This document shows, piece by piece, positions 1-59,941 of a stretch of DNA of 64,000 nt (position 1 is its first letter; every line of letters begins with the position of its first letter). Source of the DNA: Alphaproteobacteria bacterium (lineage in GTDB: Bacteria > Pseudomonadota > Alphaproteobacteria > Micavibrionales > UBA2020); assembly GCA_016124645.1 (NCBI GenBank), contig WGNE01000019.1, positions 25,699 to 89,698 of the forward strand. The letters run 5' to 3'. The notes below the pieces were generated by a model. It ran no database searches. It saw nothing but the letters and a program-made list of their open reading frames with translations, and was not told the DNA's origin. A program made the translations under genes and the position numbers.

Positions 1-878
1 AGCACGAAGGCGCCCTTCGTGGTATAGACGATGAGGATCGCGTGCGGCAGGTTCTTGACCTTGTCCTGCACGATGGCGATGCGCATGTTTTCCGCCGAAA
101 AGCCCAGCGCGCGCAGCGAGGCGTATTTGGCGATGGCGTAATCCTCGCAGTCGCCGCCGCGCTTCAGGAACTCGATGGGCGTCGCCCAGTAGTCCGACTT
201 GCGGTAGTTGGCGCTGTCCTCGACGTAGTGCACGCTGTTGATGTAATCGTTCACGCCCTCGATCTGCTCCATCATCGTGCGGCCCTTCAGCAGCTCGAGA
301 TGCGCCTTCCACGCCTGCACGACGGGCGAATGGCCCTGCGTTTGCATCTGCGCGTCGAAGCGCGTCATGACCGAGGTCCATTTGGTGAAGACCGAGATAT
401 TGTTGGATTTCACTTCGAGCGAGCCGAAGAGGCGGGGGTAGCTGACCCCCGGGTTGACGGTGCGCACGGCCGCCGGCGAAAAGGCCGAGGCCAGCCTGAC
501 CTGGTGCCCGCCGTCCGCCGCGCGGGCGACGGAGGGGCTCATGACCTGCATCATCAGCGCGACGCCGGCGGTGGAGGCCTTGATGCACCACTGCTCGGCC
601 AATTTGCGGTAAAGCTGCACGGCGGTCAGCGAGCCCTGCTGCATCAGGATCCTGCCCAGCTGTTCGCCGGTTTCCTTTTGCTTGAGCAGCGCGTCCTTCA
701 GTTCCTTGCGCGAAATCGCGCCACTGACGACCAGCAGGTCGCCCAGCTTGTAGCTCTTCATTTTATGGCTGACGGCGCGCAGGAAGCTGCGCTGCAGCGG
801 GGCTTTGCCGTCGAAAGGGGCGGCATCCGCCTGCGCTGATTCTGCTCTGCCCTCTTTTGCTATCATTTTGTTCGACAT
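1..878 (-). CDS. Transglutaminase-like cysteine peptidase (BTLCP / LapG family) with an N-terminal T2SS-E-N / MshEN-like domain. The C-terminus runs off the window.
   Basis: Absent from the ORF track because there is no stop in the window. Hand translation of the reverse strand from ATG (876-878) gives MSNKMIAKEGRAESAQADAAPFDGKAPLQRSFLRAVSHKMKSYKLGDLLVVSGAISRKELKDALLKQKETGEQLGRILMQQGSLTAVQLYRKLAEQWCIKASTAGVALMMQVM... It continues to the BTLCP signatures ...SDYWATPIEFLKRGGDCEDYAIAKYASLRALGF...LPHAILIVYTTKGAFV. The plus-strand ORF 42-839 is its antisense shadow. Confidence 0.75.
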   Translation of the reverse strand, partial: MSNKMIAKEGRAESAQADAAPFDGKAPLQRSFLRAVSHKMKSYKLGDLLVVSGAISRKELKDALLKQKETGEQLGRILMQQGSLTAVQLYRKLAEQWCIKASTAGVALMMQVMSPSVARAADGGHQVRLASAFSPAAVRTVNPGVSYPRLFGSLEVKSNNISVFTKWTSVMTRFDAQMQTQGHSPVVQAWKAHLELLKGRTMMEQIEGVNDYINSVHYVEDSANYRKSDYWATPIEFLKRGGDCEDYAIAKYASLRALGFSAENMRIAIVQDKVKNLPHAILIVYTTKGAFV

Positions 879-1009
879 AGGTTTTTTACCCTTTTTCACC
901 CGGCTTGGCCGCTTGTTCCGACAGCTCCAATTATTATGCATAAGCATTAACAAATCGTGAAATATGGGAAGGAATCCGACATTTTCCGGCTTGATAGTCC
1001 TTATGTAAT

Positions 1010-2545
1010 ATGTTAGACAGGGAGGCTCAAAACGCCACACCACCGCCCACAAAGCCAAGAGATTCCCAAATGGTTGAAAATTCAGCACTTTTCGAAGACC
1101 TGCGCCGACTGCAAGGCGCGCGGGTGCTCTGCATCGGTGACGTCATGCTGGACCGCTTCGTCTATGGCGCGGTGGACCGCATCTCGCCCGAGGCGCCGAT
1201 TCCGGTGCTGCTGGTCAAGCACGAGAAGCACATGCTGGGCGGGGCGGGCAACGTGGTCGCCAATATCGCCGCCCTGGGCGCGAAGGCCGAGCTGGTCGCC
1301 GTGACGGGCGACGACATGGCCGGGCGCGAGGTCGCGCAGCAGCTCGAACAGCTGGGCATCGCCGCCTCCCTCGAAAAGGACGCTTCGCGCGCGACCATCG
1401 TGAAAAGCCGCTTCATTTCCGCCAGCCAGCAGATCTTGCGCGTGGACCGCGAAAAAGCCGAAGCGGTCTCCAAGGACGTCGAGGACCGCGTGGCGGCCCG
1501 CGTCGAAGCCGCGCTGCCGGGTTGCGGCGCCATTATATTGTCGGATTACAAGAAAGGCCTGCTGACCGATACGCTGGTCCGCCGCGTCATCGAGATGGCG
1601 CGGGCGGCGGATGTGCCCGTCATCGTCGATCCCAAGGGGCAGGATTTCGCGCGCTACCGCGGCGCTTCGGCCATCACCCCCAACCGCAAGGAACTCGAAG
1701 CCGCCAGCGGCATGAGCGTTGGCAGCGACGACGCGGCGCGCGCGGCGGCCATGAAGATCGTCATCGAGTGCAGCATTCCCGCCGTGCTGGCGACGCGCAG
1801 CCAGGACGGCATGTCGCTCGTCACCCTGAACGACGCGCCCGCGCATATCCCCGCCAACGTGCGCGAGGTCTATGACGTTTCCGGCGCGGGCGATACCGTC
1901 ATCGCCACCTTCGCCTCCGCCGTCGCGGTGGGCGCGACGATGCGCAACGCCGCCCTGCTGGCCAATATCGCCGCGGGCATCGTGGTCGGCAAGTCCGGCA
2001 CCGCCACCGCAAGGCCCGAGGAAATCGAGCAGGCGCTGGATACCGGCTACGCCGTCGAAAAACAGGATTACCGCCGCAAGTCCAAAAGCGTGACCAAGCA
2101 GGCCGCCGCCGAGCGCGCCGACGCATGGCGCGCGCGCGGCTTCACCGTCGGCTTCACCAACGGCTGCTTCGACCTTCTGCACCCCGGCCATATCGCCACG
2201 CTGCGTCAGGCGAAGGCGGCCTGCGACTACCTCGTCGTCGGCGTCAACAGCGATGCTTCGGTCAAGCGGCTGAAGGGGCCCGAACGCCCCGTGCAGGATG
2301 AAACCGCAAGGGCCGCCGTGCTCTCGGCCATGGAAATGGTCGATCTCGTCGTCGTCTTCGAGGAAGACACGCCCATGGCCCTGCTGGAAGCCATCCGCCC
2401 CGAGGTGCTGGTCAAGGGCGGCCAGTACAAGCTGGAAGAAGTCGTCGGCTACGAGCTGGTCACGTCATATGGCGGCAGGATCGTCCGCGCCGAGATGGAA
2501 GACGGCTTTTCCACCACCAACACCATCGCGAAAATGGCGGGCTGA
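1010..2545 (+). CDS. hldE: Bifunctional D-beta-D-heptose 7-phosphate kinase / D-beta-D-heptose 1-phosphate adenylyltransferase
   Basis: 511 aa. The N-terminal half is a ribokinase-like sugar kinase (VLCIGDVMLDRFVYG, DVSGAGDTVIA). The C-terminal half is a cytidylyltransferase (GFTNGCFDLLHPGH). The start is uncertain: the alternative is ATG at 1070. Confidence 0.9.
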   Translation: MLDREAQNATPPPTKPRDSQMVENSALFEDLRRLQGARVLCIGDVMLDRFVYGAVDRISPEAPIPVLLVKHEKHMLGGAGNVVANIAALGAKAELVAVTGDDMAGREVAQQLEQLGIAASLEKDASRATIVKSRFISASQQILRVDREKAEAVSKDVEDRVAARVEAALPGCGAIILSDYKKGLLTDTLVRRVIEMARAADVPVIVDPKGQDFARYRGASAITPNRKELEAASGMSVGSDDAARAAAMKIVIECSIPAVLATRSQDGMSLVTLNDAPAHIPANVREVYDVSGAGDTVIATFASAVAVGATMRNAALLANIAAGIVVGKSGTATARPEEIEQALDTGYAVEKQDYRRKSKSVTKQAAAERADAWRARGFTVGFTNGCFDLLHPGHIATLRQAKAACDYLVVGVNSDASVKRLKGPERPVQDETARAAVLSAMEMVDLVVVFEEDTPMALLEAIRPEVLVKGGQYKLEEVVGYELVTSYGGRIVRAEMEDGFSTTNTIAKMAG

Positions 2546-3550: not shown

Positions 3551-3985
3551 TTACCGCCCGCGCCGCCTGACCTGCAGGGGCTGCTTGAAAATGGCGAGGG
3601 GCTTTTTCACGGAAAGATCGGCCAGTTCCGCGTCCAGCTGTTTTTTCGCCGCTTCGGTCAAAATCTTTATTGCCGGTTTCTGTTTTTTCGCGCGGGCGTG
3701 GTCGAGCGCGGTCTTGCCCGCGTTGTCGCGGTCGTGCAGCTTCGCGCCGCGCGCGACGAGTTCGGTGACCAGCCGGTGGCGGCAGTGGTAGGAAGCCCAC
3801 ATCAGGGGCGTCATGCCCTCCCCGTCGCGGGCGTCCAGCGGCGCCCCTTGTTCCAGCAGGGCCATCACGCGGGCTTCCAGCCCGGCGTTGCCGCTCGCGC
3901 CGTTGCGCGGCGTGCCGAGCTCCTTCAGCAATTCGCGGCCCAGCGGGTCTTCGGCCATCTGGTTGAAATCGTCCTTTACCGTCAT
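3551..3985 (-). CDS. Ankyrin-repeat protein
   Basis: 144 aa. ANK consensus stretches: GMTPLMWASYHCRHRLVTELVARGAKLHDRDNAGKTALDHA. Confidence 0.8.
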   Translation of the reverse strand: MTVKDDFNQMAEDPLGRELLKELGTPRNGASGNAGLEARVMALLEQGAPLDARDGEGMTPLMWASYHCRHRLVTELVARGAKLHDRDNAGKTALDHARAKKQKPAIKILTEAAKKQLDAELADLSVKKPLAIFKQPLQVRRRGR

Positions 3986-9767: not shown

Positions 9768-10685
9768 ATGATCGCAGAAAGCCGCAGCCATATATTGGTC
9801 GTGGAGGCCAACGACGTCACGCGCAAGCTGATCATCGGCATCCTCAACAACAAGGGCTATGAAACCTACGAGGCCACCAACGGCGACGAGGCGGTGAACT
9901 TCCTCGCGAAAAAGCCGCTGCTCGTCATCCTCGACGTCGAGGGCGAGAACGTCGATAACATCGGGTTCATCCGCAAGATGCAGATGGAGCACCGCAAGGT
10001 GCCGCTCGTCGCCATGCTGGAGGGGGCGGACCGCGAATCCGTCCGCGCGCGGCTCGACATGCCCAACGTCTCCTTCCTTGAAAAGCCGGTCATGCCCAAC
10101 ACGCTGCTCGAGAACATCGAGGGCCACCTGATGCCCGGCGTGGAAGAGGCGATACGGGCGGAGGAAGAGGCGAAGTTCCTGCCCGAAACCGTGGCCGCCA
10201 CGGCCGAAGTGCAGGCGCAGCGCGAAGGCTTCATGCGCCGCGCCATCGACCTCTCGCAGATCAAGATGGACGAGAACTGCGGCGGGCCCTTCGGTGCGGT
10301 CATCGTGCGCGCGGGCAAGATCATCGCCGAGGGCTGGAACTGCGTGACCTCCACCAACGACCCCACCGCGCACGCGGAAATGGTCGCCATCCGCGCCGCG
10401 GCGAAGGAAGTCGGCGACTTCACGCTGGAAGGCTGCGAGATCTACACGAGCTGCGAGCCCTGCCCGATGTGCCTCGCCGCCATCTACTGGGCGCGGCTGG
10501 ACCGCATGTTCTACGCCAATATGCGCGAGGACGCCGAGCGCATCGGCTTCGACGACGCCTTCCTCTACAACGAAATTTCCCTGCCGGAACACAAGCGGCA
10601 GCTTCCCACGCAGCGCATGCTGCGCGAGGAGGCGCGCATCGTCTTCGACAACTGGATGAAAAAGCCGGACAAGACGGATTACTAG
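9768..10685 (+). CDS. Response-regulator receiver domain fused to a guanine deaminase (CDA-fold, Bacillus GuaD type)
   Basis: 305 aa. REC part: HILVVEANDVTRK...LLVILDVEG...FLEKPV. Deaminase part: GGPFGAVIV, TNDPTAHAEMVAIR (HAE zinc/catalytic motif), YTSCEPCPMCLAAIYWAR (PCxxC), GFDDAFLY. It starts 6 nt after the clpA stop. Confidence 0.85.
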   Translation: MIAESRSHILVVEANDVTRKLIIGILNNKGYETYEATNGDEAVNFLAKKPLLVILDVEGENVDNIGFIRKMQMEHRKVPLVAMLEGADRESVRARLDMPNVSFLEKPVMPNTLLENIEGHLMPGVEEAIRAEEEAKFLPETVAATAEVQAQREGFMRRAIDLSQIKMDENCGGPFGAVIVRAGKIIAEGWNCVTSTNDPTAHAEMVAIRAAAKEVGDFTLEGCEIYTSCEPCPMCLAAIYWARLDRMFYANMREDAERIGFDDAFLYNEISLPEHKRQLPTQRMLREEARIVFDNWMKKPDKTDY

Positions 10686-11610: not shown

Positions 11611-11727
11611 GGCGCGAAAGCGCCGTTGCGAAACAAGTATTTGAAAACAATAATTTTTATCACTAGAATGAAACGCAAAGGGTCAGAAAGCCGCCGTCGC
11701 GGCGGCGCCGTTTTTCAGGGGGATTGC

Positions 11728-12942
11728 ATGCACAGGTTTTTCGGACGTCAGGTCATCGCGGCGGCGCGCGGCGCGTCGCGCATAAGAACGGCCGGTATCG
11801 CCGCCGTCTTTCTTGCGCTGGCCTTCTGCCCGCAGGCGCAGGCGGCGGGCAACGCGCCCTCGACGGCGGCCCCCGCCCAGCCCGCCGCCCAGCAACAGGA
11901 CCAGCCCGCGCCCGTCCGTTTCCGCGAATTCGACATCACCCGGCCCTTCCGCGCGGTGGATCCGCAGACGCTCAGGGCCGAGGGGCTGTTCATCCACCTC
12001 TGGGGCATCCGCCCCGCGCAGACCTCCGAAACGCCGCTGCAGCTCAAGGCGCTGGACCTCATGGACAGCCTCATTCAGGAACAGCGCGTGACCTGCCACG
12101 TCGTCGGCGGCGCCATGCCCGAGCTCGTCGCGCGCTGCGCCACGCAGAACAACCAGGACCTCGCGCTCGAGCTTTTGCGCGCGGGCTTCGCGGTGGTCGA
12201 TCGCCGCCAGACCTATGATTCCGTCTTCGCCACCGCCTATGAAAAGGCGCAGGAAAGCGCGCGTCTGGCCAGCAAGGGCGTCTGGACCTACGTCAACCAG
12301 GAAAACAGCGACAAGAACAGCCTCATCCCCGCGTGGCTCAAGCCGCATATGGACGTGCTGCTGCCCGTCGCCATCATCTTCTTCCCCTTCGGCGGGATGA
12401 TGATCGTGGCGCTCATCATGTGGTACTGGCTGAAACGCATGGCCGACCTGCAGCAGATGGAAGCCGAGCAGTCGAGCCGCAAGGAGGAGATGCTCCAGAC
12501 CCGCGAGCGGCAGGTGCTGGTCTCCACCCTCGAGGGCGAGCTCATCGAGAACAAGAACAAGATCGAGGCCTTCCTCGTCATCTACGGCGACATGCTGCGC
12601 TCGCTGCAGGACAGCAGCGAAGTGCCCAAATACCAGCAGGGCGGCGACATCGTGCAAAAGCACCCCGGTTTCGGCCGCACGGTGTTCGAAACGAACGTCG
12701 GCAAGCTGTCCCTGCTCGACATCAAGCTGGCGGGGCTGATCTCCAAGCTCTACAGCTCGATGCCCAAGGAGCAGGAATACATCAACCTCGAGCCCGACGT
12801 GCCGCTGGACACCGCCATCAAGCTGGTGGAAAAGGTGCTGAAGGAGGCCGAGGAGCTGCTCAAGCCGATCAACCTCGTCATCGAGCGCCTGCAGGGCGGC
12901 GGGTCGGAACGCAAGGCCCGCGCGCCGCAGCCGCCGCAATAA
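11728..12942 (+). CDS. Membrane protein with an N-terminal exported thermonuclease (SNase)-like domain, one TM helix and a C-terminal coiled-coil region
   Basis: Start at ATG 11728, with AGGGGG 6 nt upstream. Signal-like AAVFLALAFCPQAQA. SNase-like pattern LFIHLWGIRPAQ...RVTCHVVG...ARCATQNNQDLALELLRAGFAVV...YEKAQESARLASKGVW. TM segment VLLPVAIIFFPFGGMMIVALIMWYWL. The domain call rests on pattern only. Confidence 0.5.
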   Translation: MHRFFGRQVIAAARGASRIRTAGIAAVFLALAFCPQAQAAGNAPSTAAPAQPAAQQQDQPAPVRFREFDITRPFRAVDPQTLRAEGLFIHLWGIRPAQTSETPLQLKALDLMDSLIQEQRVTCHVVGGAMPELVARCATQNNQDLALELLRAGFAVVDRRQTYDSVFATAYEKAQESARLASKGVWTYVNQENSDKNSLIPAWLKPHMDVLLPVAIIFFPFGGMMIVALIMWYWLKRMADLQQMEAEQSSRKEEMLQTRERQVLVSTLEGELIENKNKIEAFLVIYGDMLRSLQDSSEVPKYQQGGDIVQKHPGFGRTVFETNVGKLSLLDIKLAGLISKLYSSMPKEQEYINLEPDVPLDTAIKLVEKVLKEAEELLKPINLVIERLQGGGSERKARAPQPPQ

Positions 12943-18743: not shown

Positions 18744-19640
18744 ATGACGCAGGAAAAGACCATGATGGATTCCGCCGAAGGGGAAGAAAGCAAAGAGAAA
18801 CAGGACAACCAGCCTCTCAGCCCAGAAGAGGAAGCGAAGAAAAAAGAGGCCGTGGAGGCCAAGCGCGAGCAGGACGATTTCACCGAGCTGGTCAAGGCGA
18901 TGCTCTTCGCCGCCGTCATCGCGCTCTTCATCCGCTCCTTCCTTTTCGAGCCCTTCAACATCCCCTCCGGCTCCATGTTCCCGACGCTGCTGGTCGGCGA
19001 CTATCTTTTCGTCGAAAAATACGCCTACGGCTACAGCAAGTATTCCTTCCCCTTCGGCCTGCTCAGCTTCGAGGGGCGCGTGATGGACGACAAGGTCACC
19101 CGCGGCGACGTCGTGGTCTTCCGCCAGCCCAAGCGGCCGGACATCGACTACATCAAGCGCATCGTCGGCCTGCCGGGCGACACGATACAGGTGACCGAGG
19201 GGCGGCTTTACATCAACGGCAAGATCGTGCCGCGCGACCTCGTCGGCACGGAGGTCTATGACGACGAGGGCCGCCCGACCACCTACCACAAGTACATCGA
19301 AACCCTGCCGAACGGCGTGAAGCACGACATCTACGAGATTTCCGACCACGAGGCGCTGGACAACACGCAGGTCTATAAGGTGCCCAAGGGCTATTACTTC
19401 GCCATGGGCGACAACCGCGACAGCTCGCTCGACAGCCGCGTGCAGTCGGACGTCGGCTACGTGCCCGAGGAAAACCTCATCGGTCGCGCGGTCATCATCT
19501 TCTTCTCGACCAAGGGCATCGGCGACAAATGCGAGCGCGACGGCTTCCTCTCTTCCGTGCGCCGCGTCGGCTGCGATGTCTATGAGGGCGTGAAGCAGGT
19601 TCGCTACAGCCGGATGTTCAAGCGTGTCGCAGGCTACTGA
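18744..19640 (+). CDS. lepB: Signal peptidase I
   Basis: IPSGSMFPTLLVGDYLFV, KRIVGLPGD, GDNRDSSLDSR. Confidence 0.9.
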   Translation: MTQEKTMMDSAEGEESKEKQDNQPLSPEEEAKKKEAVEAKREQDDFTELVKAMLFAAVIALFIRSFLFEPFNIPSGSMFPTLLVGDYLFVEKYAYGYSKYSFPFGLLSFEGRVMDDKVTRGDVVVFRQPKRPDIDYIKRIVGLPGDTIQVTEGRLYINGKIVPRDLVGTEVYDDEGRPTTYHKYIETLPNGVKHDIYEISDHEALDNTQVYKVPKGYYFAMGDNRDSSLDSRVQSDVGYVPEENLIGRAVIIFFSTKGIGDKCERDGFLSSVRRVGCDVYEGVKQVRYSRMFKRVAGY

Positions 19641-21367: not shown

Positions 21368-22135
21368 ATGCTCAAAAAGATATTCAGCAAAGTCAGCGGC
21401 AGGCCGGAGCAGCAGCTCTGGAACGACGCGCTGCGCGCCGCCGCCATCAAGGGCGACCTGAAAAAGGCCCAAAAAGCCATCGCCAAGGGGGCGGAGATCG
21501 ACTGGAAGGACGTCAACGGCCTGACCCCGTTATACTTCGCCGCCACCAACGGGCATCTTGCCGTGGCCAAGCTGCTGCTCGAAAAAGGCGCGGCGGTCGA
21601 TACCGGCAAGCCGTGCGAGAACACCGGCACGGGGCTCACGCAGGCCGCCTATAACGGCGACGCGGAAATGCTGAAGCTGCTCATCGAACACAAGGCGGAT
21701 ATCAATGCGGGGTCTTACACCCGCTGCGCCATCCATGACGCGGTCTGGCGGAACAACGCCGAAGCCGTGGAGGTGCTGGCCGAAGCGGGCGCGAAGCTGG
21801 AAACGCGCGACCGCATGGGCCACACGCCGCTGATGGACGCGGTCGCCTTCAATTACCGCGAGGTCGCCCTTATCCTCGTGCGCCACGGGGCGGATGCTTC
21901 CGTGACCGACAAATACGGCGACGACATGCGCAAGGCCATGGTGCGCAAGGTCTGGCTGGACGTGGTCGAGGCCATCGATACGTACAAGGCCGAGGCCGCC
22001 GCGCGCGAGGCCGCCCGCCTCAAGGCAGAAGAGCAGGCCGCCGCCGCGCGCGAAAAGGCGCTGGACGAAGCGGCCACCCTGCAGCGCGACGTGAAGGTCA
22101 GCCGCCCGCTGGTGGTGAAACGCCGCCAGCCGTAA
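21368..22135 (+). CDS. Ankyrin-repeat protein
   Basis: 255 aa with several ANK units (NGLTPLYFAATNGHLAVAKLLLEKGAAVD; GHTPLMDAVAFNYREVALILVRHGAD) and a C-terminal Ala/Glu-rich helix. Confidence 0.8.
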   Translation: MLKKIFSKVSGRPEQQLWNDALRAAAIKGDLKKAQKAIAKGAEIDWKDVNGLTPLYFAATNGHLAVAKLLLEKGAAVDTGKPCENTGTGLTQAAYNGDAEMLKLLIEHKADINAGSYTRCAIHDAVWRNNAEAVEVLAEAGAKLETRDRMGHTPLMDAVAFNYREVALILVRHGADASVTDKYGDDMRKAMVRKVWLDVVEAIDTYKAEAAAREAARLKAEEQAAAAREKALDEAATLQRDVKVSRPLVVKRRQP

Positions 22136-22276: not shown

Positions 22277-22903
22277 ATGAGCTGGACAGACGAACGCATC
22301 GCCGTACTCAAGAAGATGTGGAAAGAAGGCAAGAGCGCCGCCGAAATCGCCAAGACGCTCGGCAAGGGCGTGACGCGCAACGCCGTCATCGGCAAGGCGC
22401 ACCGCATGGGCCTGTCGGGCCGCCCGTCGCCCATCAAGAAGCCCGCCGCTTCCAAGAAGGAGCCGGCCAAGAAAAAAGCCGCGCCCAAGGCCGCGACCGC
22501 CAAGAAGTCTTCCGCGCCCGCCGCCGCGCCCGCGCGCGAAAAGGCCAGCCCCGCCGTCGCCAAGGAAGCGGAAGAGCTGAAGAAGATCGAGAAGGAAGTC
22601 GTGCCCGTCGGCGGCGGCGTTTCCCTGCTGGAGCTGACCGAGCGCATGTGCAAATGGCCCATCGGCGACCCGCGCGAGGCGGATTTCACCTTCTGCGGCC
22701 TCGCCATCCGTCCCGGCACGCCCTATTGCCCGGAGCACGCGGCCATGGCCTACCAGTCCTCCAGCCGCTCGCGCACCGCGGCCGCCAACCAGGACAAGAA
22801 CAAGAAAGCCGTGGAAGCGGAAGACGAGGATGATGTCGATGTCGATGTTGATGACGTCGATGATGTCGATGACGATGATGATGATGCCGTCAGCGCGGGC
22901 TGA
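22277..22903 (+). CDS. gcrA: Cell-cycle transcriptional regulator GcrA, with a poly-Asp/Val tail
   Basis: MSWTDERIAVLKKMWKEGKSAAEIAKTLGKGVTRNAVIGKAHRMGLSGR ... CKWPIGDP ... FCG. The tail is EDEDDVDVDVDDVDDVDDDDDDAVSAG. Confidence 0.9.
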   Translation: MSWTDERIAVLKKMWKEGKSAAEIAKTLGKGVTRNAVIGKAHRMGLSGRPSPIKKPAASKKEPAKKKAAPKAATAKKSSAPAAAPAREKASPAVAKEAEELKKIEKEVVPVGGGVSLLELTERMCKWPIGDPREADFTFCGLAIRPGTPYCPEHAAMAYQSSSRSRTAAANQDKNKKAVEAEDEDDVDVDVDDVDDVDDDDDDAVSAG

Positions 22904-23017: not shown

Positions 23018-23803
23018 ATGGACGACGAGCAGGAGGACGAGCCTTTCATGACGCAGCCGCCGGCAACGGATGCCTTCGCGCAAACGCAGCAGCCCAGCCC
23101 GATCGCGCTGGAAGCGCAGCAGCAGTTTTCCGCCCATATCGCGCAGACGGGGCTGGAAGGCTATCTGGAGGTGCTGGGCGCGCATGTCGCCGCCTGGCAC
23201 AAGACCACGCTCTCGCTGGCCGCCGCGGCGGACGACAAGGCCGTGAACTTCCTGCAGGGCACGGCGGAAGAATACCTGACGGAGGATATTCGCGCGCGGC
23301 TGGACGAGGTCCGTCTGGGCGGGACGTCGCGGGACATCGCCGCGGCCTATCATGACATGCGGCCCGACGTGCCCCTGTCCGACAAATCCGCGACCGTCGT
23401 CGCCGGCATGAACGTCTGGAGCCCGAAGAAGCAGGAGGCGGGACAGCTTTTCGTCTTGGCGCAGCAATTGCCGCAGGAACAAAGGGAGCAGGCCTTCGAG
23501 GCGCTGCGGACCTCCGCCGCGCTGGTGACGCAGGAAATGGGCGCGATGCAGGCGGTCGAGAACGAGCTTTTGCTGCTGAGCCGCGGCAACGGCAATGTGC
23601 CGGATATCGAAATCAGCAAGCTGGCGCGCAACGTCGAATATCACGCGAGCGTGCGCGACGACTGGAAGGTGCTGGCCGCGCAGGCGGAAAAGACGATGCA
23701 TGTCTCCCCCGCGCCCGACGCCGCCGCAACCGCCGCGCCGGGCGGGACGCAAAAACCCGCAGCCAAAACCACGGTCAATCCCTCATCCCCCGGTCTCGGT
23801 TGA
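23018..23803 (+). CDS. Hypothetical protein (no family recognised)
   Basis: 261-aa ORF whose amino-acid composition looks like a real protein (not the Arg/Gly/Ala-rich shadow type). No motif recognised. The start could be M11. Confidence 0.5.
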   Translation: MDDEQEDEPFMTQPPATDAFAQTQQPSPIALEAQQQFSAHIAQTGLEGYLEVLGAHVAAWHKTTLSLAAAADDKAVNFLQGTAEEYLTEDIRARLDEVRLGGTSRDIAAAYHDMRPDVPLSDKSATVVAGMNVWSPKKQEAGQLFVLAQQLPQEQREQAFEALRTSAALVTQEMGAMQAVENELLLLSRGNGNVPDIEISKLARNVEYHASVRDDWKVLAAQAEKTMHVSPAPDAAATAAPGGTQKPAAKTTVNPSSPGLG

Positions 23804-23815
23804 GGTTCTTTCCTG

Positions 23816-25015
23816 TTATTTTTCCGGTGAATCCTTCGCGTCCGCGCGCTTGAGCTTGTAGCGCGGGATGGCGGCAAGGTAGGGCGCGGCCGTATGTTCG
23901 GCGAGCGCCTTGCGGCTCGGCGGCAGCGTGTCGCCCAGCGCTTCCCGCCGTCCTTCATAACGCGGGTCGATATAGGCGGCGATCGTGTACCAGAAATAGG
24001 CGTCGAAGGGGCTTTTGGCGTCGCCCAGCCCGCGTTCGAACAGCTTGGCCAGCAGGGCCGCCGCGGGCGCGCTGTCGCCCGACAAGCCCGCGGGCGCGAG
24101 CAGCCGGTGGGCCTTGCTGTAGTCTTGCGGCACGTTCCTGCCCTCGATATAGGCCTTGGCAAGGGCGAATTGCGCTTCGTGCTGGTTGGCGTCCGCCGCT
24201 TGCTCCCAGTATTCGACGGCTTTCTTTCCGTCCTGCTTCAGCCCGCCGCGCCCTGCGTCGTAATAAAGGCCGAGGCGGTAGAGCGCGTCGCCGTCGCCCG
24301 CGCGCGCCGCCCGGTCGTACCAGCTGGCGGCGAGGCTTTCGTTCGCCGTCACGCCTTCGCCCTTTTCGAACATGCCGCCGACGGCGGTATCGGCCGGCAC
24401 GAAGCCGAGGGTGGAAGCCGTCTGGTAATCCTTCATCGCCTCCGCCGCGTCGGGCGCGGTGCCCAGCCCCTGTTCATAGCAGCGGCCGAGGTGGTAAAGC
24501 GCGAGCCGGTCGCCCTTTTTCGCCGCGGCCTGGTAAAGCGCGAAGGCGGTGTCGAGGTCGCGCGCCAGCACGGTGCCGTTCTCGTACATCGTGCCCAGCA
24601 CGGCCTGCGACATGGGCTCGCCCGCTTTCGCGGCCCTTTTCAGCCAGCGGGCCGATTCCCTGAAATCCTTCCTCACGCCAAGGCCGATGGCGTAGATGAA
24701 GCCGAGCTCTCGGTCGGCCATGAAGAACCCCTGCGCGGAGGCCTTCTTGTACCATTTGATCGCCTCGCCCATATTCGGCTGCGTGCCCGCGCCGGTCTTG
24801 TAGTCGCTGGCGAGGTTGTATTGCGCCTCGGGGTCGCCGTCCTTCGCGGCTTTTTCGTCGAGCCTGAACATCTCGTCCCGCTGCCGGCCAAGAAGGGCGA
24901 TTTTGTGCCGGCAGGAATACGCCTGCTCGTCGCAGCCGTAGATATTCGCGCGCGCGCCCGTGGCGGCGCCGCACAGCAGCATGATGACGGATAAAGACAA
25001 AAACGCGCGCCGCAT
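23816..25015 (-). CDS. Secreted Sel1-repeat (SLR) protein
   Basis: Start at MRRAFLSLSVIMLLCGAATGARA (ATG 25015, AGAGGGGA upstream). Multiple Sel1 units are present, e.g. GDPEAQYNLASDYKTGAGTQPNMGEAIKWYKKASAQG and GEPMSQAVLGTMYENG. Confidence 0.8.
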   Translation of the reverse strand: MRRAFLSLSVIMLLCGAATGARANIYGCDEQAYSCRHKIALLGRQRDEMFRLDEKAAKDGDPEAQYNLASDYKTGAGTQPNMGEAIKWYKKASAQGFFMADRELGFIYAIGLGVRKDFRESARWLKRAAKAGEPMSQAVLGTMYENGTVLARDLDTAFALYQAAAKKGDRLALYHLGRCYEQGLGTAPDAAEAMKDYQTASTLGFVPADTAVGGMFEKGEGVTANESLAASWYDRAARAGDGDALYRLGLYYDAGRGGLKQDGKKAVEYWEQAADANQHEAQFALAKAYIEGRNVPQDYSKAHRLLAPAGLSGDSAPAAALLAKLFERGLGDAKSPFDAYFWYTIAAYIDPRYEGRREALGDTLPPSRKALAEHTAAPYLAAIPRYKLKRADAKDSPEK

Positions 25016-25104
25016 GGCAATTCCCCTCTCTGCTTCAAGGCTAGGGGCGGGGGGCGCGGCTGTCAATCTTGGAAAGCCCCGGTGTTGAAAGCCCCGGCCG
25101 GACC

Positions 25105-34655: not shown

Positions 34656-35093
34656 TTGACAGCAAGGGACACCTGCGCCGTGCCGCAAGACGAGAAAAAC
34701 GACCTGCCGGAAAAAAAGACCGTGCCCCGCATCCTGCGCGGCCGGCTGGAAGCTTTTTCCGAACAGGGCACGGAGGGCACGATCTGGTGTTTCTACGAGG
34801 ACGGCAAGACCGGCTACGACGCACTGTTCCCGCTGGAAAAGGGCGACGTTCTGCGCGTCTTCAACGACGCCGCGCGCAAGGACGAGGTCTGGAAGGGCGT
34901 GATTGATTTCGATTACGAGGTCGCGAAGAAACCCTTCTTCGGCGGCCACGTACAGCGGGTCGAGAACATCGGCACCGTGCACGGCGTGCAAAAGAGGGAA
35001 GACCCGGAAAACTGGGCGCAAATGTTCATTGATGAAAAACCGGCCATTCTGATCCTGCGCGATCCGGGGCGGTTCGACTTCAAGAAACGCTAA
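34656..35093 (+). CDS. Hypothetical protein
   Basis: 145-aa ORF (TTG start, alternative GTG at 34680) with real-protein-like composition (…GTIWCFYEDGKTGYDALFPLEKGDVLRVF…). No family recognised. Confidence 0.45.
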   Translation: MTARDTCAVPQDEKNDLPEKKTVPRILRGRLEAFSEQGTEGTIWCFYEDGKTGYDALFPLEKGDVLRVFNDAARKDEVWKGVIDFDYEVAKKPFFGGHVQRVENIGTVHGVQKREDPENWAQMFIDEKPAILILRDPGRFDFKKR

Positions 35094-57471: not shown

Positions 57472-58323
57472 ATGGCTTACGTTTTCATGGGCAAGGCCCG
57501 CATGAACACCGCGATCAGCCGCGGGGAGATCGACAAGATGAGCGCGTTGCTCAGCCGCGGGCTCAACATCGAGCTGACCGACGATTACGGCGACAGCTTC
57601 CTCATCAACGCCATTTACGCCAACAACCCCCGCGCGGTGGCGCTGCTGCTGGAAAAAGGCGCTTCGACCGTCACCAGCGCCGTGCGCCACGGCTCGCCCC
57701 TCTTGCTGGCCGCGCAAAAAGGCAACCTCGAGATCTGCGAGAAGCTGGTGGAAAAAGACCCCGCGCTGCTGACCCTGCGCGACCGCGACGGCAACACCCC
57801 GCTGCACAAGGCCGCCGAAAGCGGGCACGAGGAAGTGGCCGCCTTCCTGCTGCACAAGGGCGTCGATCCGCATGCGAAGAACAAGGCCAACCGCACGCCG
57901 CTCTTCCTCGCCCAGTCGAAGAACAACTTCAACGTCGCAAGCATCCTCGAAGCCCTGCCCAAGCCGCCCACGGCCTATGCGGTTCCGCAGGCGGCGGAAA
58001 CGGCGCAGCCCGAAACGGAAACGGGCTGGCGCAAGCTGGCCGACGACTGCGTCGCGCATGTGAAGGACGCACCCGCCATCGGCTACCGCATCACCGAGAT
58101 TTTTAATTTCGCCGCGCGCGAGCGCGTGACGCTCTACCGCAACCTCGAAACCGGCGCGGAAAGCGTGGACGTGAAGGATTTCGCGCGCATCGCGCAAAAG
58201 GCGCCGCTGGAGCGCGCTCTGGCCGAGCTGCAAAAGCGCGGCGGCCATGCGGGCGCGGATTGCATCACCGGCATCGACAAGCCCCGCACCCTGCCCCCCG
58301 GTCCCGCCGCGCCCGGCGGCTGA
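57472..58323 (+). CDS. Ankyrin-repeat protein with an unrecognised C-terminal domain
   Basis: N-terminal ~160 aa of ANK units (GNTPLHKAAESGHEEVAAFLLHKGVDPHAKNKANRTPLFLA). The C-terminal ~110 aa has no recognised motif. Confidence 0.75.
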   Translation: MAYVFMGKARMNTAISRGEIDKMSALLSRGLNIELTDDYGDSFLINAIYANNPRAVALLLEKGASTVTSAVRHGSPLLLAAQKGNLEICEKLVEKDPALLTLRDRDGNTPLHKAAESGHEEVAAFLLHKGVDPHAKNKANRTPLFLAQSKNNFNVASILEALPKPPTAYAVPQAAETAQPETETGWRKLADDCVAHVKDAPAIGYRITEIFNFAARERVTLYRNLETGAESVDVKDFARIAQKAPLERALAELQKRGGHAGADCITGIDKPRTLPPGPAAPGG

Positions 58324-59332: not shown

Positions 59333-59743
59333 TCACTTGTGCTGCTGAGCCTGCAGCAGCCCCGGCGCGGGCACGAAGGGCGGAGGCGCCTTTTCGAAGG
59401 CGATAAAGAGGCCGAAGGCGGACAAGACGAAAATCAGGAACATCGCGACCGCGAAACCGTGGCTGGGCTTTTTCAGCAGCTCCGCCTTTTCCGCCGCCGG
59501 GGCCTCCGGCATCATGGCCTGATGCGACAGCCGGAACAGGTAGGCGGGCAGGGTCAGGAACAGAATCCGCACCGTGCGCCGCTGCTGGTAGTCCATATGG
59601 TCTTTCATGAGGTAGGGAAACAAGATCCAGTCCAGCAAAAGCAGCGAGATCCCCGCGATGAAGAACATCACGGCGGCGAAGGTGAAGAGCCTGCGTTCCG
59701 ATGGCGTTTCGCCGTTGTCTTGCGTGTCGTTCGTTTCGTCCAT
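59333..59743 (-). CDS. Hypothetical membrane protein (about 3 TM segments)
   Basis: Start MDETNDTQDN (59743). Hydrophobic segments: LFTFAAVMFFIAGISLLLLDWILFPYL, ILFLTLPAYLF, FAVAMFLIFVLSAFGLFIAF. Confidence 0.45.
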   Translation of the reverse strand: MDETNDTQDNGETPSERRLFTFAAVMFFIAGISLLLLDWILFPYLMKDHMDYQQRRTVRILFLTLPAYLFRLSHQAMMPEAPAAEKAELLKKPSHGFAVAMFLIFVLSAFGLFIAFEKAPPPFVPAPGLLQAQQHK

Positions 59744-59941
59744 GTTCTGATGATAGCGGCAAAAAGGCGCAATATCAGCATATTGTCGCAAAGTTAAACA
59801 TTTTGTGACTGTATTTCCTTAAATTATGGTAATGAAATCCGGCCTGTTTTCTTGATGCCCCCCGCGCGATTCGCTACCAATGAAGGGGCGGGGCGTAACC
59901 TGAAAAACGACAAGACCAACAAGCGCAGGATATCAGCACAG

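Follow-up and report, generated by a model that had tools for sequence, protein, structure and literature searches.

A predicted c-di-GMP-binding motif pair fused through a signal-peptide-like segment to a LapG-fold cysteine protease in Micavibrio-like bacteria

Bacteria that use periplasmic BTLCP cysteine proteases to place their surface adhesins under c-di-GMP control provide a textbook example of inside-out signalling, and in all circuits of this type known to us the signal is received by a separate transmembrane receptor, either LapD or DvhD. The NfrB protein of Escherichia coli is a c-di-GMP-activated glycosyltransferase that carries a C-terminal MshEN domain. A stretch of 64,000 nucleotides from contig WGNE01000019.1 of a member of the Micavibrionales, referred to as the window, contains a gene that encodes an MshEN_N-type motif pair, a signal-peptide-like segment and a BTLCP domain in one polypeptide.

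The fusion protein resembles LapD/LapG of Pseudomonas fluorescens and Legionella in two respects: its protease domain shows 30-35% identity to LapG structures, a Cys-His-Asp triad and a D-C-E-D calcium-type motif, and a cytoplasmic c-di-GMP receptor is predicted to be connected with periplasmic proteolysis. In the Lap system, however, these functions are distributed over two proteins and the receptor is a degenerate GGDEF-EAL protein, whereas the fusion unites them in a single polypeptide with an MshEN_N bundle as the receptor-like part. Moreover, no LapD-type receptor, LapA-like adhesin or type I secretion system is encoded beside the fusion gene, as judged from 8-10 kb around the orthologue at seven Pfam-annotated metagenome-contig loci. 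The protein scored 105.1 bits with the NCBIfam LapG equivalog model NF045674, far below the equivalog cut-off of 320 bits, and orthology to LapG was ruled out by this value together with the lack of Lap-type neighbours. The BTLCP domain of the fusion is closer to the signal-peptide-only BTLCPs recovered from Alphaproteobacteria such as Dongia and Rhodospirillales than to LapG proper.

The only characterised alphaproteobacterial BTLCP is the capsule inhibitor HvyA of Caulobacter crescentus (PMC4241560), to which the fusion is likened here by description. HvyA possesses a Sec signal sequence and the Cys-His-Asp residues, is encoded outside any Lap operon and blocks capsulation, and its gene adjoins envelope-polysaccharide genes (PMC4241560), while the fusion gene adjoins either hldE or GT2/DegT genes. 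Unlike the fusion, HvyA carries an ordinary signal peptide without a fused c-di-GMP module, and it is regulated through cell-cycle-dependent transcription and through proteolysis (PMC4241560). DvhG of Desulfovibrio vulgaris is likewise a LapG-like BTLCP, with an N-terminal hydrophobic helix at the inner membrane and a long disordered linker, but it has no c-di-GMP-binding domain of its own and depends on the separate HD-GYP/dCache protein DvhD as receptor (PMC13090378).

With respect to the N-terminal module, NfrB provided the best match outside the ATPases (PRK11234 residues 474-543 versus query residues 35-105). NfrB is a membrane-associated enzyme under the control of a fused MshEN, as is predicted for the fusion, but in NfrB output and receptor are both cytoplasmic and no signal has to cross the membrane. 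Proteins containing the 53-residue motif pair without MshEN_C or T2SSE_N1 were catalogued by Wang et al. 2016, with MshEN_N-Peptidase_M23 (Acaryochloris NlpD AM1_1153) and MshEN_N-AAA_31 (EpsG) as examples (PMC5013675). In these proteins, as in the fusion, the pair is located N-terminal to an output domain, which in one catalogued case is a cell-envelope peptidase; a Peptidase_C93/BTLCP partner, however, is absent from the table of Wang et al. 2016 (PMC5013675). The literature searched yielded no description of an MshEN_N-BTLCP architecture or of an MshEN_N junction with a retained signal peptide and a signal-peptidase site, no paper combining MshEN with the term 'transglutaminase-like', and no experimental study of the catalogued MshEN_N peptidase fusions. 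Publications naming both MshEN and LapG were reviews in which the two are handled separately.

The fusion gene lies on the reverse strand; it begins with an ATG at nt 878 and is open at nt 1, the start of the window. Because it is open-ended, it is absent from the list of open reading frames, which contains at this locus solely a spurious antisense ORF of 265 aa (42..839). The sequence-only reading of this DNA had noted a reverse-strand gene that runs off the edge and is missed by the ORF track; this proved to be the case, and its coordinates and sequence strings were all found to be correct when re-read against the window translation. The missing C-terminus, which it had recommended recovering, was obtained from the 100% identical protein P0001, resulting in a full-length protein of 329 aa whose 37 final codons, including that of the catalytic Asp294, lie past the window start. 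The gene, its parts and its upstream region are as follows:

1..878, reverse strand: MshEN_N / signal-like segment / BTLCP fusion gene, 292 of 329 codons within the window (from translation)
798..878, reverse strand: variable disordered N-terminal tail, residues 1-27 (pLDDT <50; mean pairwise identity 0.17 among 120 homologues)
750..797, reverse strand: basic helix α0 before the motif pair, residues 28-43 (AlphaFold2 helix H28-41)
678..749, reverse strand: MshEN_N motif 1, residues 44-67, KLGDLLVVSGAISRKELKDALLKQ (NF053729 profile positions 1-24)
663..677, reverse strand: spacer KETGE, residues 68-72 (read directly from the sequence)
591..662, reverse strand: MshEN_N motif 2, residues 73-96, QLGRILMQQGSLTAVQLYRKLAEQ (NF053729 profile positions 30-53)
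519..590, reverse strand: signal-peptide-derived segment, residues 97-120, WCIKASTAGVALMMQVMSPSVARA (predicted cut after A120)
435..518, reverse strand: flexible linker, residues 121-148 (pLDDT <50 for residues 114-143; pairwise identity 0.38)
3..434, reverse strand: part of the BTLCP domain (Peptidase C93, LapG-fold) within the window, residues 149-292 (Pfam PF06035)
914..963, reverse strand: conserved block in the hldE/BTLCP intergenic region (alignment with four orthologous loci)
1070..2545, forward strand: hldE, bifunctional heptose kinase/adenylyltransferase, divergent neighbour (ORF)

Residues 44-96 (nt 591-749) read KLGDLLVVSGAISRKELKDALLKQ-KETGE-QLGRILMQQGSLTAVQLYRKLAEQ and comprise two 24-residue motifs separated by a 5-residue spacer, which is extended to 7 residues in Micavibrio aeruginosavorus. 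Apart from A54 and S83, both motifs conform to the pattern xLGxx[LVI][LVI]xxG[LVI][LVI]xxxxLxxxLxxQ. The NCBIfam profile NF053729 ('c-di-GMP_motif, MshE-related') matched from end to end (profile positions 1-53 of 53; E = 1.3e-14) with 53.7 bits, the curated cut-off being 38 bits, so that the match is far beyond chance. This result bears out the earlier recognition of two MshE-type 24-residue repeats with a 5-residue linker, and the deviations named at that time stand as well: the motifs begin with K44 and Q73, and one of their hydrophobic positions is occupied by A54 and S83. The profile was also matched by each of the 120 closest homologues (E <= 0.001) and, with 39-67 bits, by divergent orthologues including that of the cultured M. 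aeruginosavorus HCB189. A phmmer search against the PDB identified the GSPII-B domain of Thermus PilF, which binds c-di-GMP (6f8l, E = 5e-13; 8pdk, E = 2e-9), as well as MshE of Vibrio (5htl, E = 1.3e-6).

The AlphaFold2 model of residues 41-100 (pLDDT 83-97) predicts a four-helix bundle that can be superposed on the ligand-bound MshE and PilF structures, with 0.6-1.5 Å rmsd to 5htl, 8pdk and 9gl5 over approximately 55 columns and 45-54% identity. Basic residues are common in the preceding helix α0, where R34 occurs in 112 of 120 homologues and lysine or arginine at position 41 in 98. Within motif 1, L45 is present in 118 of the 120 homologues, G46, L60 and L64 in all of them and Q67 in 119; the respective numbers for motif 2 are 118 (L74), 120 (G75), 109 (L89), 120 (L93) and 120 (Q96). 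The putative contact residues L45, G46, L60, L64, Q67, L74, G75, L93 and Q96 are thus 98-100% conserved, corresponding to L10, G11, L25, L29, Q32, L39, G40, L58 and Q61 of MshE, and L89, the counterpart of MshE L54, is 91% conserved. The first-position arginine of the motifs is replaced by lysine in motif 1 and by glutamine in motif 2, and glutamine lies outside the relaxed first-position set [RKPN] of Wang et al. (PMC5013675). K44 aligns with K167 of PilF GSPII-B, a domain that was crystallised as wild type, with this lysine at the first position, with c-di-GMP bound; Q67 and Q96 align with its residues Q190 and Q218.

The profile searches proposed by the sequence-only reading had a divided outcome: NF053729 scored above its cut-off, whereas Pfam T2SSE_N (PF05157) gave no match at E <= 10 with the whole protein or with N-terminal fragments. 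The latter result is explained by the fact that the protein contains only the MshEN_N sub-domain and not a whole MshEN domain, since MshEN_C is absent and the hydrophobic segment comes directly after motif 2. In MshE, the MshEN_N sub-domain is sufficient for c-di-GMP binding when isolated, the KD being 0.35 µM (PMC5013675). On the basis of profile, alignment and residue conservation, residues 44-96 are a complete MshEN_N c-di-GMP motif pair, and binding of the nucleotide is predicted.

The last helix of motif 2 (α4) continues without a break into the hydrophobic segment (AlphaFold2 helix H86-113). The segment carries a signal-peptidase-I-type motif, consisting of P115 (-6), A118 (-3) and A120 (-1) followed by two acidic residues (D/E D/E), i.e. 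an A-R-A site, and these three residues are each conserved to at least 97% among the 120 homologues. W97 and K/R100 occur in all 120 homologues, P115 and A118 in 117 each and A120 in 119. The short relatives P0125, P0148, P0204 and P0208 have ordinary N-terminal signal peptides, the ends of which align with A120. The putative export signal of the fusion is thus a signal-peptide-like stretch inside the chain that bears an AxA motif and is homologous to the signal peptides of the short relatives, but it is weakly hydrophobic. In the clade of the window the best 19-residue Kyte-Doolittle window amounts to 1.03 and a crude Hessa-scale sum to +8.7 kcal/mol, so that membrane insertion or export is not assured from the sequence alone. 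The h-region comprises approximately 13-14 residues. The divergent fusion members display values of 1.6-2.7 in a 15-residue Kyte-Doolittle window, and an AxA-type motif follows each of their segments. Pairwise identity within the segment is 0.63, which is unusually high for a signal peptide.

A segment that the sequence-only reading had described as moderately hydrophobic is present, but it looks like a retained signal peptide and not like a plain transmembrane anchor, an assignment that was downgraded in view of the low hydropathy, the homology to cleavable signal peptides and the conserved AxA motif. The charge distribution, approximately +2.9/-0.9 on the N-terminal side of the segment and +1.5/-1.9 after it, fits the positive-inside rule and favours an N-in/C-out orientation. 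It is quite possible that the N-terminal module is removed by signal-peptide cleavage, an outcome that the sequence-only reading had counted as refuting; in our view, such a cleavage would leave the coupling of the two modules intact and would mean that release or export is controlled instead of the protease being regulated allosterically.

The linker that follows varies in length from 24 to 92 residues across the fusion family. It holds a conserved V-R-L-A-[AS]-A-F sequence (residues 127-133), which was rejected as a LapG-type self-cleavage site since it does not match [T/A/P]AAG. The BTLCP domain spans residues ~149-329 of the full protein. Its presence, already named in the earlier reading, was confirmed by Pfam PF06035 (Peptidase_C93; 64.2 bits and E = 1.6e-17 for the truncated window copy, gathering cut-off 27 bits), by phmmer matches to the LapG structures 4u65_E and 4fgo (E ~1e-20) and by Foldseek (E = 2e-11; target-normalised TM-score to the LapG fold 0.7). 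The codon of Cys244 is located at nt 147-149 and that of His279 at nt 42-44. C244, H279 and D294, which align with the triad region of LapG, are invariant in the 120 homologues, as is the D243-C244-E245-D246 sequence, which represents a putative calcium-type site. The equivalent residues of DvhG, D316 and E318 on either side of the catalytic cysteine, are required both for binding of calcium and for activity (PMC13090378). A periplasmic location has been determined experimentally for HvyA (PMC4241560) and LapG (PMC13090378).

Both modules are present in all of the 120 closest homologues and the fusion also occurs in the cultured M. aeruginosavorus, which confirms the earlier view that receptor-like module and protease form one polypeptide and shows that the fusion is real and not a frameshift or start-codon artefact. 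The N-terminal domain and the protease domain are conserved alike, with pairwise identities of 0.60 and 0.66. The divergent fusion members share synteny, with hldE or GT2/DegT genes upstream and pyk downstream, which shows them to be orthologues. Down to 35-45% identity the fusion is kept at the same locus, with a BTLCP partner each time, and this persistence argues for a functional coupling. The fusion family is characteristic of Micavibrio-like epibiotic predators.

The divergent hldE neighbour (PfkB plus CTP_transf_like) was found in six more loci (L001, L004, L005, L006, L020 and L087), and in locus L088 its place is taken by GT2/DegT genes. The conserved intergenic block is overlapped by a sigma-70-like promoter (-35 TTCACG at 961, -10 CATAAT ending at 933), the promoter scan yielding one site versus 0.2 expected. 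On inspection by eye, the block contains a TTAA half-site and no full CtrA box. A scan of 88 loci (~1 Mb) detected no ORF with a GG[DE]EF motif; together with the seven annotated loci, this gives no separate LapD or GGDEF gene near the fusion over the 6-10 kb covered. Pfam analysis of approximately 54 ORFs of the window revealed housekeeping genes only, no c-di-GMP-metabolising gene was detected within the 64-kb window, and no linked substrate gene was found near the fusion gene. M. aeruginosavorus carries a cNMP/EAL homolog of the phosphodiesterase Bd1971 (PMC6717892). It also encodes, next to a type I secretion system, the LapA-like RTX/vWA giant protein GMV0107, whose expression falls in the attachment phase (PMC3189940).

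We regard it as moderately probable that one polypeptide couples cytoplasmic c-di-GMP to a periplasmic BTLCP cysteine protease. According to this proposal, the first ~96 residues would reside in the cytoplasm and comprise the tail, the basic helix and a four-helix MshEN_N bundle holding one c-di-GMP. Helix α4, which would contribute the contacts L89, L93 and Q96, would run on into residues 97-120 as a retained Sec signal peptide, and the calcium-type Cys-His-Asp protease domain would be situated outside the inner membrane behind the flexible linker of 24-92 residues. A disordered linker of variable length is unlikely to relay a rigid allosteric signal to the active site; our proposal is therefore that the location of the protease depends on whether the bundle, apposed to the membrane, is occupied by c-di-GMP. 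In one state the protease might stay bound to the inner membrane through its uncleaved signal anchor, as a precursor, or remain unexported, and in the other state cleavage by signal peptidase might free it into the periplasm. The 'sequester versus release' logic of LapD/LapG would then be reproduced inside one protein. Candidate substrates are GMV0107 of Micavibrio or, as for HvyA, an envelope-polysaccharide factor.

If the cut by signal peptidase were constitutive, receptor and protease would be separated and regulation would be possible only before cleavage. A more specific and tentative version of the proposal, which we consider possible rather than probable, is a ligand-gated signal peptide, in which c-di-GMP on the bundle decides on Sec translocation or on cutting by signal peptidase I. 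If this were true, a second messenger would directly set the amount of free periplasmic protease, a case of second-messenger control of export or signal-peptide processing, and such gating might extend to other exported MshEN_N proteins, for instance those of the MshEN_N-Peptidase_M23 type.

The continuity of α4 with the segment could also serve as a direct mechanical link in a protease that is permanently tethered to the membrane by an uncleaved type II signal anchor, c-di-GMP shifting the transmembrane helix or the dimerisation state and thereby activity or substrate reach. This allosteric or oligomeric control corresponds to the literal model of the sequence-only reading. The unusual conservation of the segment and its small residues A104-G105 and A107 are compatible with a specific helix packing, and a transmembrane-anchored BTLCP has a precedent in DvhG (PMC13090378). 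Nevertheless, permanent tethering seems rather unlikely to us, because the nearly invariant proline at -6 and alanines at -3 and -1, with the acidic residues behind them, have no obvious role in a pure anchor, an h-region of 13-14 residues is short for a stable transmembrane span and the disordered linker should not pass on a conformational change.

The same conserved signal-peptidase site would split the protein into two halves, and MshEN_N is found in many unrelated architectures (PMC5013675). Both observations are in agreement with an N-terminal module that binds c-di-GMP without regulating the protease, acting either as a separate membrane-anchored binder after cleavage or in the targeting of the precursor to the cell pole or to a local cyclase. 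Such an independence of the modules is nevertheless improbable, as a separable function could easily be provided by a separate gene, whereas in diverged orthologues the fusion persists at an unchanged locus and its partner is a BTLCP every time.

A similarly low probability is assigned to the view that the MshEN_N bundle is degenerate, has lost c-di-GMP binding like Xanthomonas XpsE and serves only as a structural extension of the signal peptide. Non-binding MshEN domains have been documented (PMC5013675), motif 1 of the fusion starts with lysine instead of arginine and motif 2 with glutamine, proline or arginine, and the turn residue G53 is replaced by arginine in 19 of 120 homologues, as is the matching turn residue of motif 2 in M. 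aeruginosavorus. The proven binder PilF GSPII-B, however, likewise has lysine first in motif 1 and even leucine first in motif 2, no disabling substitution of the XpsE type is present at the glycine, leucine and glutamine positions, and the motif pair scores above the curated NCBIfam cut-off. Finally, a wholly cytoplasmic protein or an untranslated N-terminal extension arising from misannotation, to which the weak segment in the clade of the window might point, is scarcely credible, as there is no alternative in-frame start just before K100, the N-terminal region is conserved as protein in every homologue, the orthologues have strongly hydrophobic segments and the characterised BTLCPs are periplasmic.

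If the coupling of both modules holds true, a conserved protein with its own c-di-GMP module of the high-affinity type would represent a minimal form of the Lap circuit and would offer a simple system for studying how a cytoplasmic nucleotide signal gets to the periplasm. The unusual part of the protein is the junction, where the receptor helix leads straight into a retained and cleavable-looking signal peptide, and given this continuity, export or signal-peptide cleavage might be gated by a second messenger. Attachment to and release from prey are central to the behaviour of Micavibrio-like epibiotic predators, and to our knowledge the c-di-GMP effectors of these organisms are essentially unstudied. 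The fusion gene thus offers a concrete starting point for studying how predator attachment is regulated.

The receptor-type module and the protease sit in one conserved reading frame, carried by the following gene of the window:

1-878, minus strand: fusion-protein gene, with its ATG at nt 878, open at the window start, 292 codons inside the window

Translation of the minus strand reproduced all sequence strings and coordinates of the sequence-only reading: residues 44-96 are encoded by nt 591-749, residues 101-118 form the hydrophobic stretch, and the region from GDCED to LPHAILIV is present. The C-terminus that this reading had lacked was supplied by P0001, a full-length protein of 329 residues that is 100% identical to the window copy. 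The gene is missing from the mechanical ORF list because it is open-ended, and the list shows in this region solely an antisense ORF (42..839). This antisense ORF of 265 aa (window 42-839, plus strand) is spurious and results from the high G+C content (64%). The fusion itself is genuine and conserved, and it makes biological sense.

The assignment of the N-terminal residues to an MshEN-type motif pair was borne out by profile, PDB and structural comparisons. The anticipated profile match was obtained with NCBIfam NF053729 ('cyclic di-GMP-binding domain-containing protein, MshE-related', 53 positions, curated cut-off 38 bits), which spans residues 44-96 end to end (E = 1.3e-14, 53.7 bits), whereas Pfam T2SSE_N gave no match even at E <= 10. 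The module is 'MshEN_N only', and for this reason Pfam misses it; in MshE, the isolated MshEN_N sub-domain is enough to bind c-di-GMP (KD 0.35 µM; Wang et al., PMC5013675). A phmmer search of all PDB sequences aligned residues 40-100 to full-length Thermus thermophilus PilF (6f8l, E = 5e-13), which contains the c-di-GMP-binding GSPII-B domain, to this domain in isolation (8pdk, E = 2e-9) and to Vibrio cholerae MshE (5htl, E = 1.3e-6). For the fusion protein, an AlphaFold2 model built from an alignment of 120 homologues reached a pLDDT of 83-97 across residues 41-100 and predicted helices at 45-52, 57-70, 74-81 and 86-113. Foldseek superposed it on the c-di-GMP-bound structures 5htl, 8pdk and 9gl5, with deviations of 0.6-1.5 Å across some 55 columns and an identity of 45-54%, and with a separate model of residues 28-120 the top nine matches were all (9/9) c-di-GMP-bound MshE or PilF structures.

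The ligand contacts in MshE are made by xLG backbone amides, Leu triads and two Gln residues (Wang et al., PMC5013675). Their equivalents in the fusion protein are L45, G46, L60, L64, Q67, L74, G75, L89, L93 and Q96, which are 98-100% conserved among the 120 homologues, with the exception of L89 (91%). Motif 1 starts with Lys and motif 2 with Gln, which departs from the consensus, as the sequence-only reading had noted. In the PilF GSPII-B domain the counterpart of K44 is K167, and motif 2 of PilF starts with Leu; according to this alignment, deviations at both first positions are tolerated in PilF, a proven binder. The positions mutated by the authors of the PilF structures, as named in the PDB titles (K167, Q190 and Q218), correspond to K44, Q67 and Q96. 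The N-terminal module is likely to bind c-di-GMP.

The C-terminal part matches Peptidase_C93 of Pfam with 64.2 bits (cut-off 27), and in a phmmer search of the PDB residues 187-325 hit the LapG structures 4u65_E and 4fgo at E values of about 1e-20. For the protease part, Foldseek yielded E = 2e-11 and a TM-score of about 0.7, normalised to the target. C244, H279 and D294 as well as the motif D243-C244-E245-D246 are invariant in the homologue alignment; DvhG, a LapG-like protease, needs the acidic residues on either side of its catalytic Cys for calcium binding and activity (PMC13090378). Identity as LapG proper is ruled out by the NCBIfam LapG equivalog, which scored 105 bits and thus remained below its cut-off of 320. 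The protease domain shares 40-55% identity with short BTLCPs recovered from Alphaproteobacteria such as Dongia and Rhodospirillales and about 30-35% with LapG. Of the original designation 'LapG-family (BTLCP)', the BTLCP part stands, whereas the LapG label has to be relaxed to BTLCP. A relative of 417 aa from outside the window (P0189) contains two tandem BTLCP domains, the first of which has lost the GDCED catalytic motif.

The segment between the two modules had been taken for a transmembrane anchor. Its hydrophobicity is weak, with a best Kyte-Doolittle 19-residue window of 1.03 and a crude Hessa-scale sum of +8.7 kcal/mol. When 1.84 billion cluster representatives were searched exhaustively, close BTLCP relatives without the N-terminal module came out directly beside the fusion family, and these (P0125, P0148, P0204 and P0208) start with ordinary Sec signal peptides, whose ends coincide in a joint alignment with A120 of the fusion protein. 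The signal-peptidase-I features are kept, namely K/R100 (n-region), an h-region of 13-14 residues, P115 (-6), A118 (-3) and A120 (-1); the D/E D/E pair following A120 is about 82-88% conserved and the remaining features at least 97%. Divergent fusion members carry much more hydrophobic segments (1.6-2.7 in a Kyte-Doolittle 15-residue window), each followed by an AxA-type motif. Weak hydropathy, alignment with Sec signal peptides and the conserved signal-peptidase-I motif led us to replace the anchor by a retained signal peptide: the segment is signal-peptide-derived and probably cleavable. With a mean pairwise identity of 0.63 (receptor 0.60, protease 0.66) it is unusually conserved for a signal peptide, and in the model one unbroken helix (86-113) runs from receptor α4 (L89, L93, Q96) into it. 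The charge distribution (+2.9/-0.9 ahead of the segment, +1.5/-1.9 behind) favours an N-in/C-out topology, and the protease domain is likely to be exported.

The linker behind the segment is predicted to be disordered (pLDDT < 50, residues 114-143) and measures 24-92 residues across the fusion family. Within this otherwise variable stretch, just past the predicted signal-peptidase site, the motif V-R-L-A-[AS]-A-F is conserved (residues 127-133; window 480-500, minus strand), with A130 invariant. It is alanine-rich but departs from the consensus for LapG cleavage, [T/A/P]AAG, and could serve in self-processing or docking.

Each of the 120 closest clusters at 90% identity contains both modules and matches NF053729, and the fusion is found in about 25 of the 150 best 50%-identity representatives. 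In GTDB the fusion is found in Micavibrio species (two complete chromosomes of M. aeruginosavorus among them), in many alphaproteobacterial MAGs and in two MAGs labelled Pseudobdellovibrionaceae; the orthologue of M. aeruginosavorus HCB189 (locus L020, 5914-6891) scored 45.5 bits on NF053729. The fusion gene stands alone, divergent from hldE, and the block ClpA-ClpS-two PBP5-acylphosphatase-TPR-FGase-hldE is syntenic between orthologous loci and the window, while divergent orthologues have pyk downstream and, on the upstream side, hldE or GT2/DegT genes. Neither in seven orthologous loci nor in the window does a gene for LapD, a type I secretion system or an adhesin adjoin the fusion gene, and no GG[DE]EF-containing ORF was detected in 88 loci or in the 64-kb window. 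There is no partner receptor near the fusion gene. The hldE/BTLCP intergenic region contains a conserved block, ATTTCACGATTTGTTAATGCTTATGCATAATAATTGGAGCTGTCGGAACA (about 50 nt; window 914-963, minus strand), which recurs at three orthologous loci (L001, L004 and L005) and overlaps the sole sigma-70-like promoter match (961..933); it may be a regulatory site common to the divergent pair.

The remaining window genes are housekeeping genes, among them those for SpoT, LepB, RNase III, Era, GcrA, AddAB, ThrRS and FtsH. LepB (signal peptidase I, Peptidase_S26) is encoded at 18744-19640 and GcrA, a cell-cycle regulator that marks the organism as an alphaproteobacterium, at 22277-22903 (both plus strand). 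A 305-aa protein (9768-10685, plus strand), with a counterpart at the syntenic position in L001, combines Response_reg with dCMP_cyt_deam_1 (Pfam), and for a two-component receiver an output in the form of a cytidine/deoxycytidylate deaminase domain is unusual. Three ankyrin-repeat proteins (3551-3985, minus; 21368-22135, plus; 57472-58323, plus) and one Sel1-repeat protein (23816-25066, minus) are also present; repeat proteins of this eukaryote-like kind are characteristic of bacteria in close interaction with other cells. Four coding-like ORFs with a GC3 of at least 0.79 had no Pfam match, at a limit of 1e-5 for 11626-12942 (plus) and of 1e-4 for 23018-23803 (plus), 34656-35093 (plus) and 59333-59791 (minus).

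Both parts of the protein are already familiar; new is their combination, for which no earlier description was found, and the same holds for the receptor-signal-peptide junction. The MshEN_N proteins of Wang et al. (Supplementary Table 4, PMC5013675) include MshEN_N-Peptidase_M23, MshEN_N-AAA_31 and others but no Peptidase_C93, and DvhG provides a precedent for membrane anchoring of a BTLCP, with the receptor, DvhD, made as a protein of its own (PMC13090378). Searches of the literature library did not retrieve MshEN combined with 'transglutaminase-like', texts naming both MshEN and LapG were reviews, and those on BTLCP/Peptidase_C93 did not describe the fusion, which may be visible in InterPro architectures without having been discussed.

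We infer that the protease is under the control of bundle occupancy. Regulation of its location seems more plausible than allosteric control of catalysis, because the linker is flexible and its length varies. Under such location control, the protease would stay in the form of an uncleaved, signal-anchored precursor or else be kept from export altogether, and in the alternative state it would be set free by signal peptidase, with LepB as the enzyme to cut the predicted A-R-A site. This proposed retention and release would mirror the sequester-or-release logic of LapD/LapG; a signal peptide gated by c-di-GMP is a tentative and rather doubtful proposal. M. aeruginosavorus has c-di-GMP enzymes: it is reported to possess a cNMP/EAL homologue of Bd1971 (PMC6717892). 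A candidate substrate in this species is GMV0107, an RTX/vWA protein of 2892 aa that is encoded beside TolC/HlyB/HlyD and expressed in the attachment phase (PMC3189940). By analogy with HvyA, a precedent for such a target of a BTLCP (PMC4241560), an envelope-polysaccharide-related target may be considered as a second candidate.
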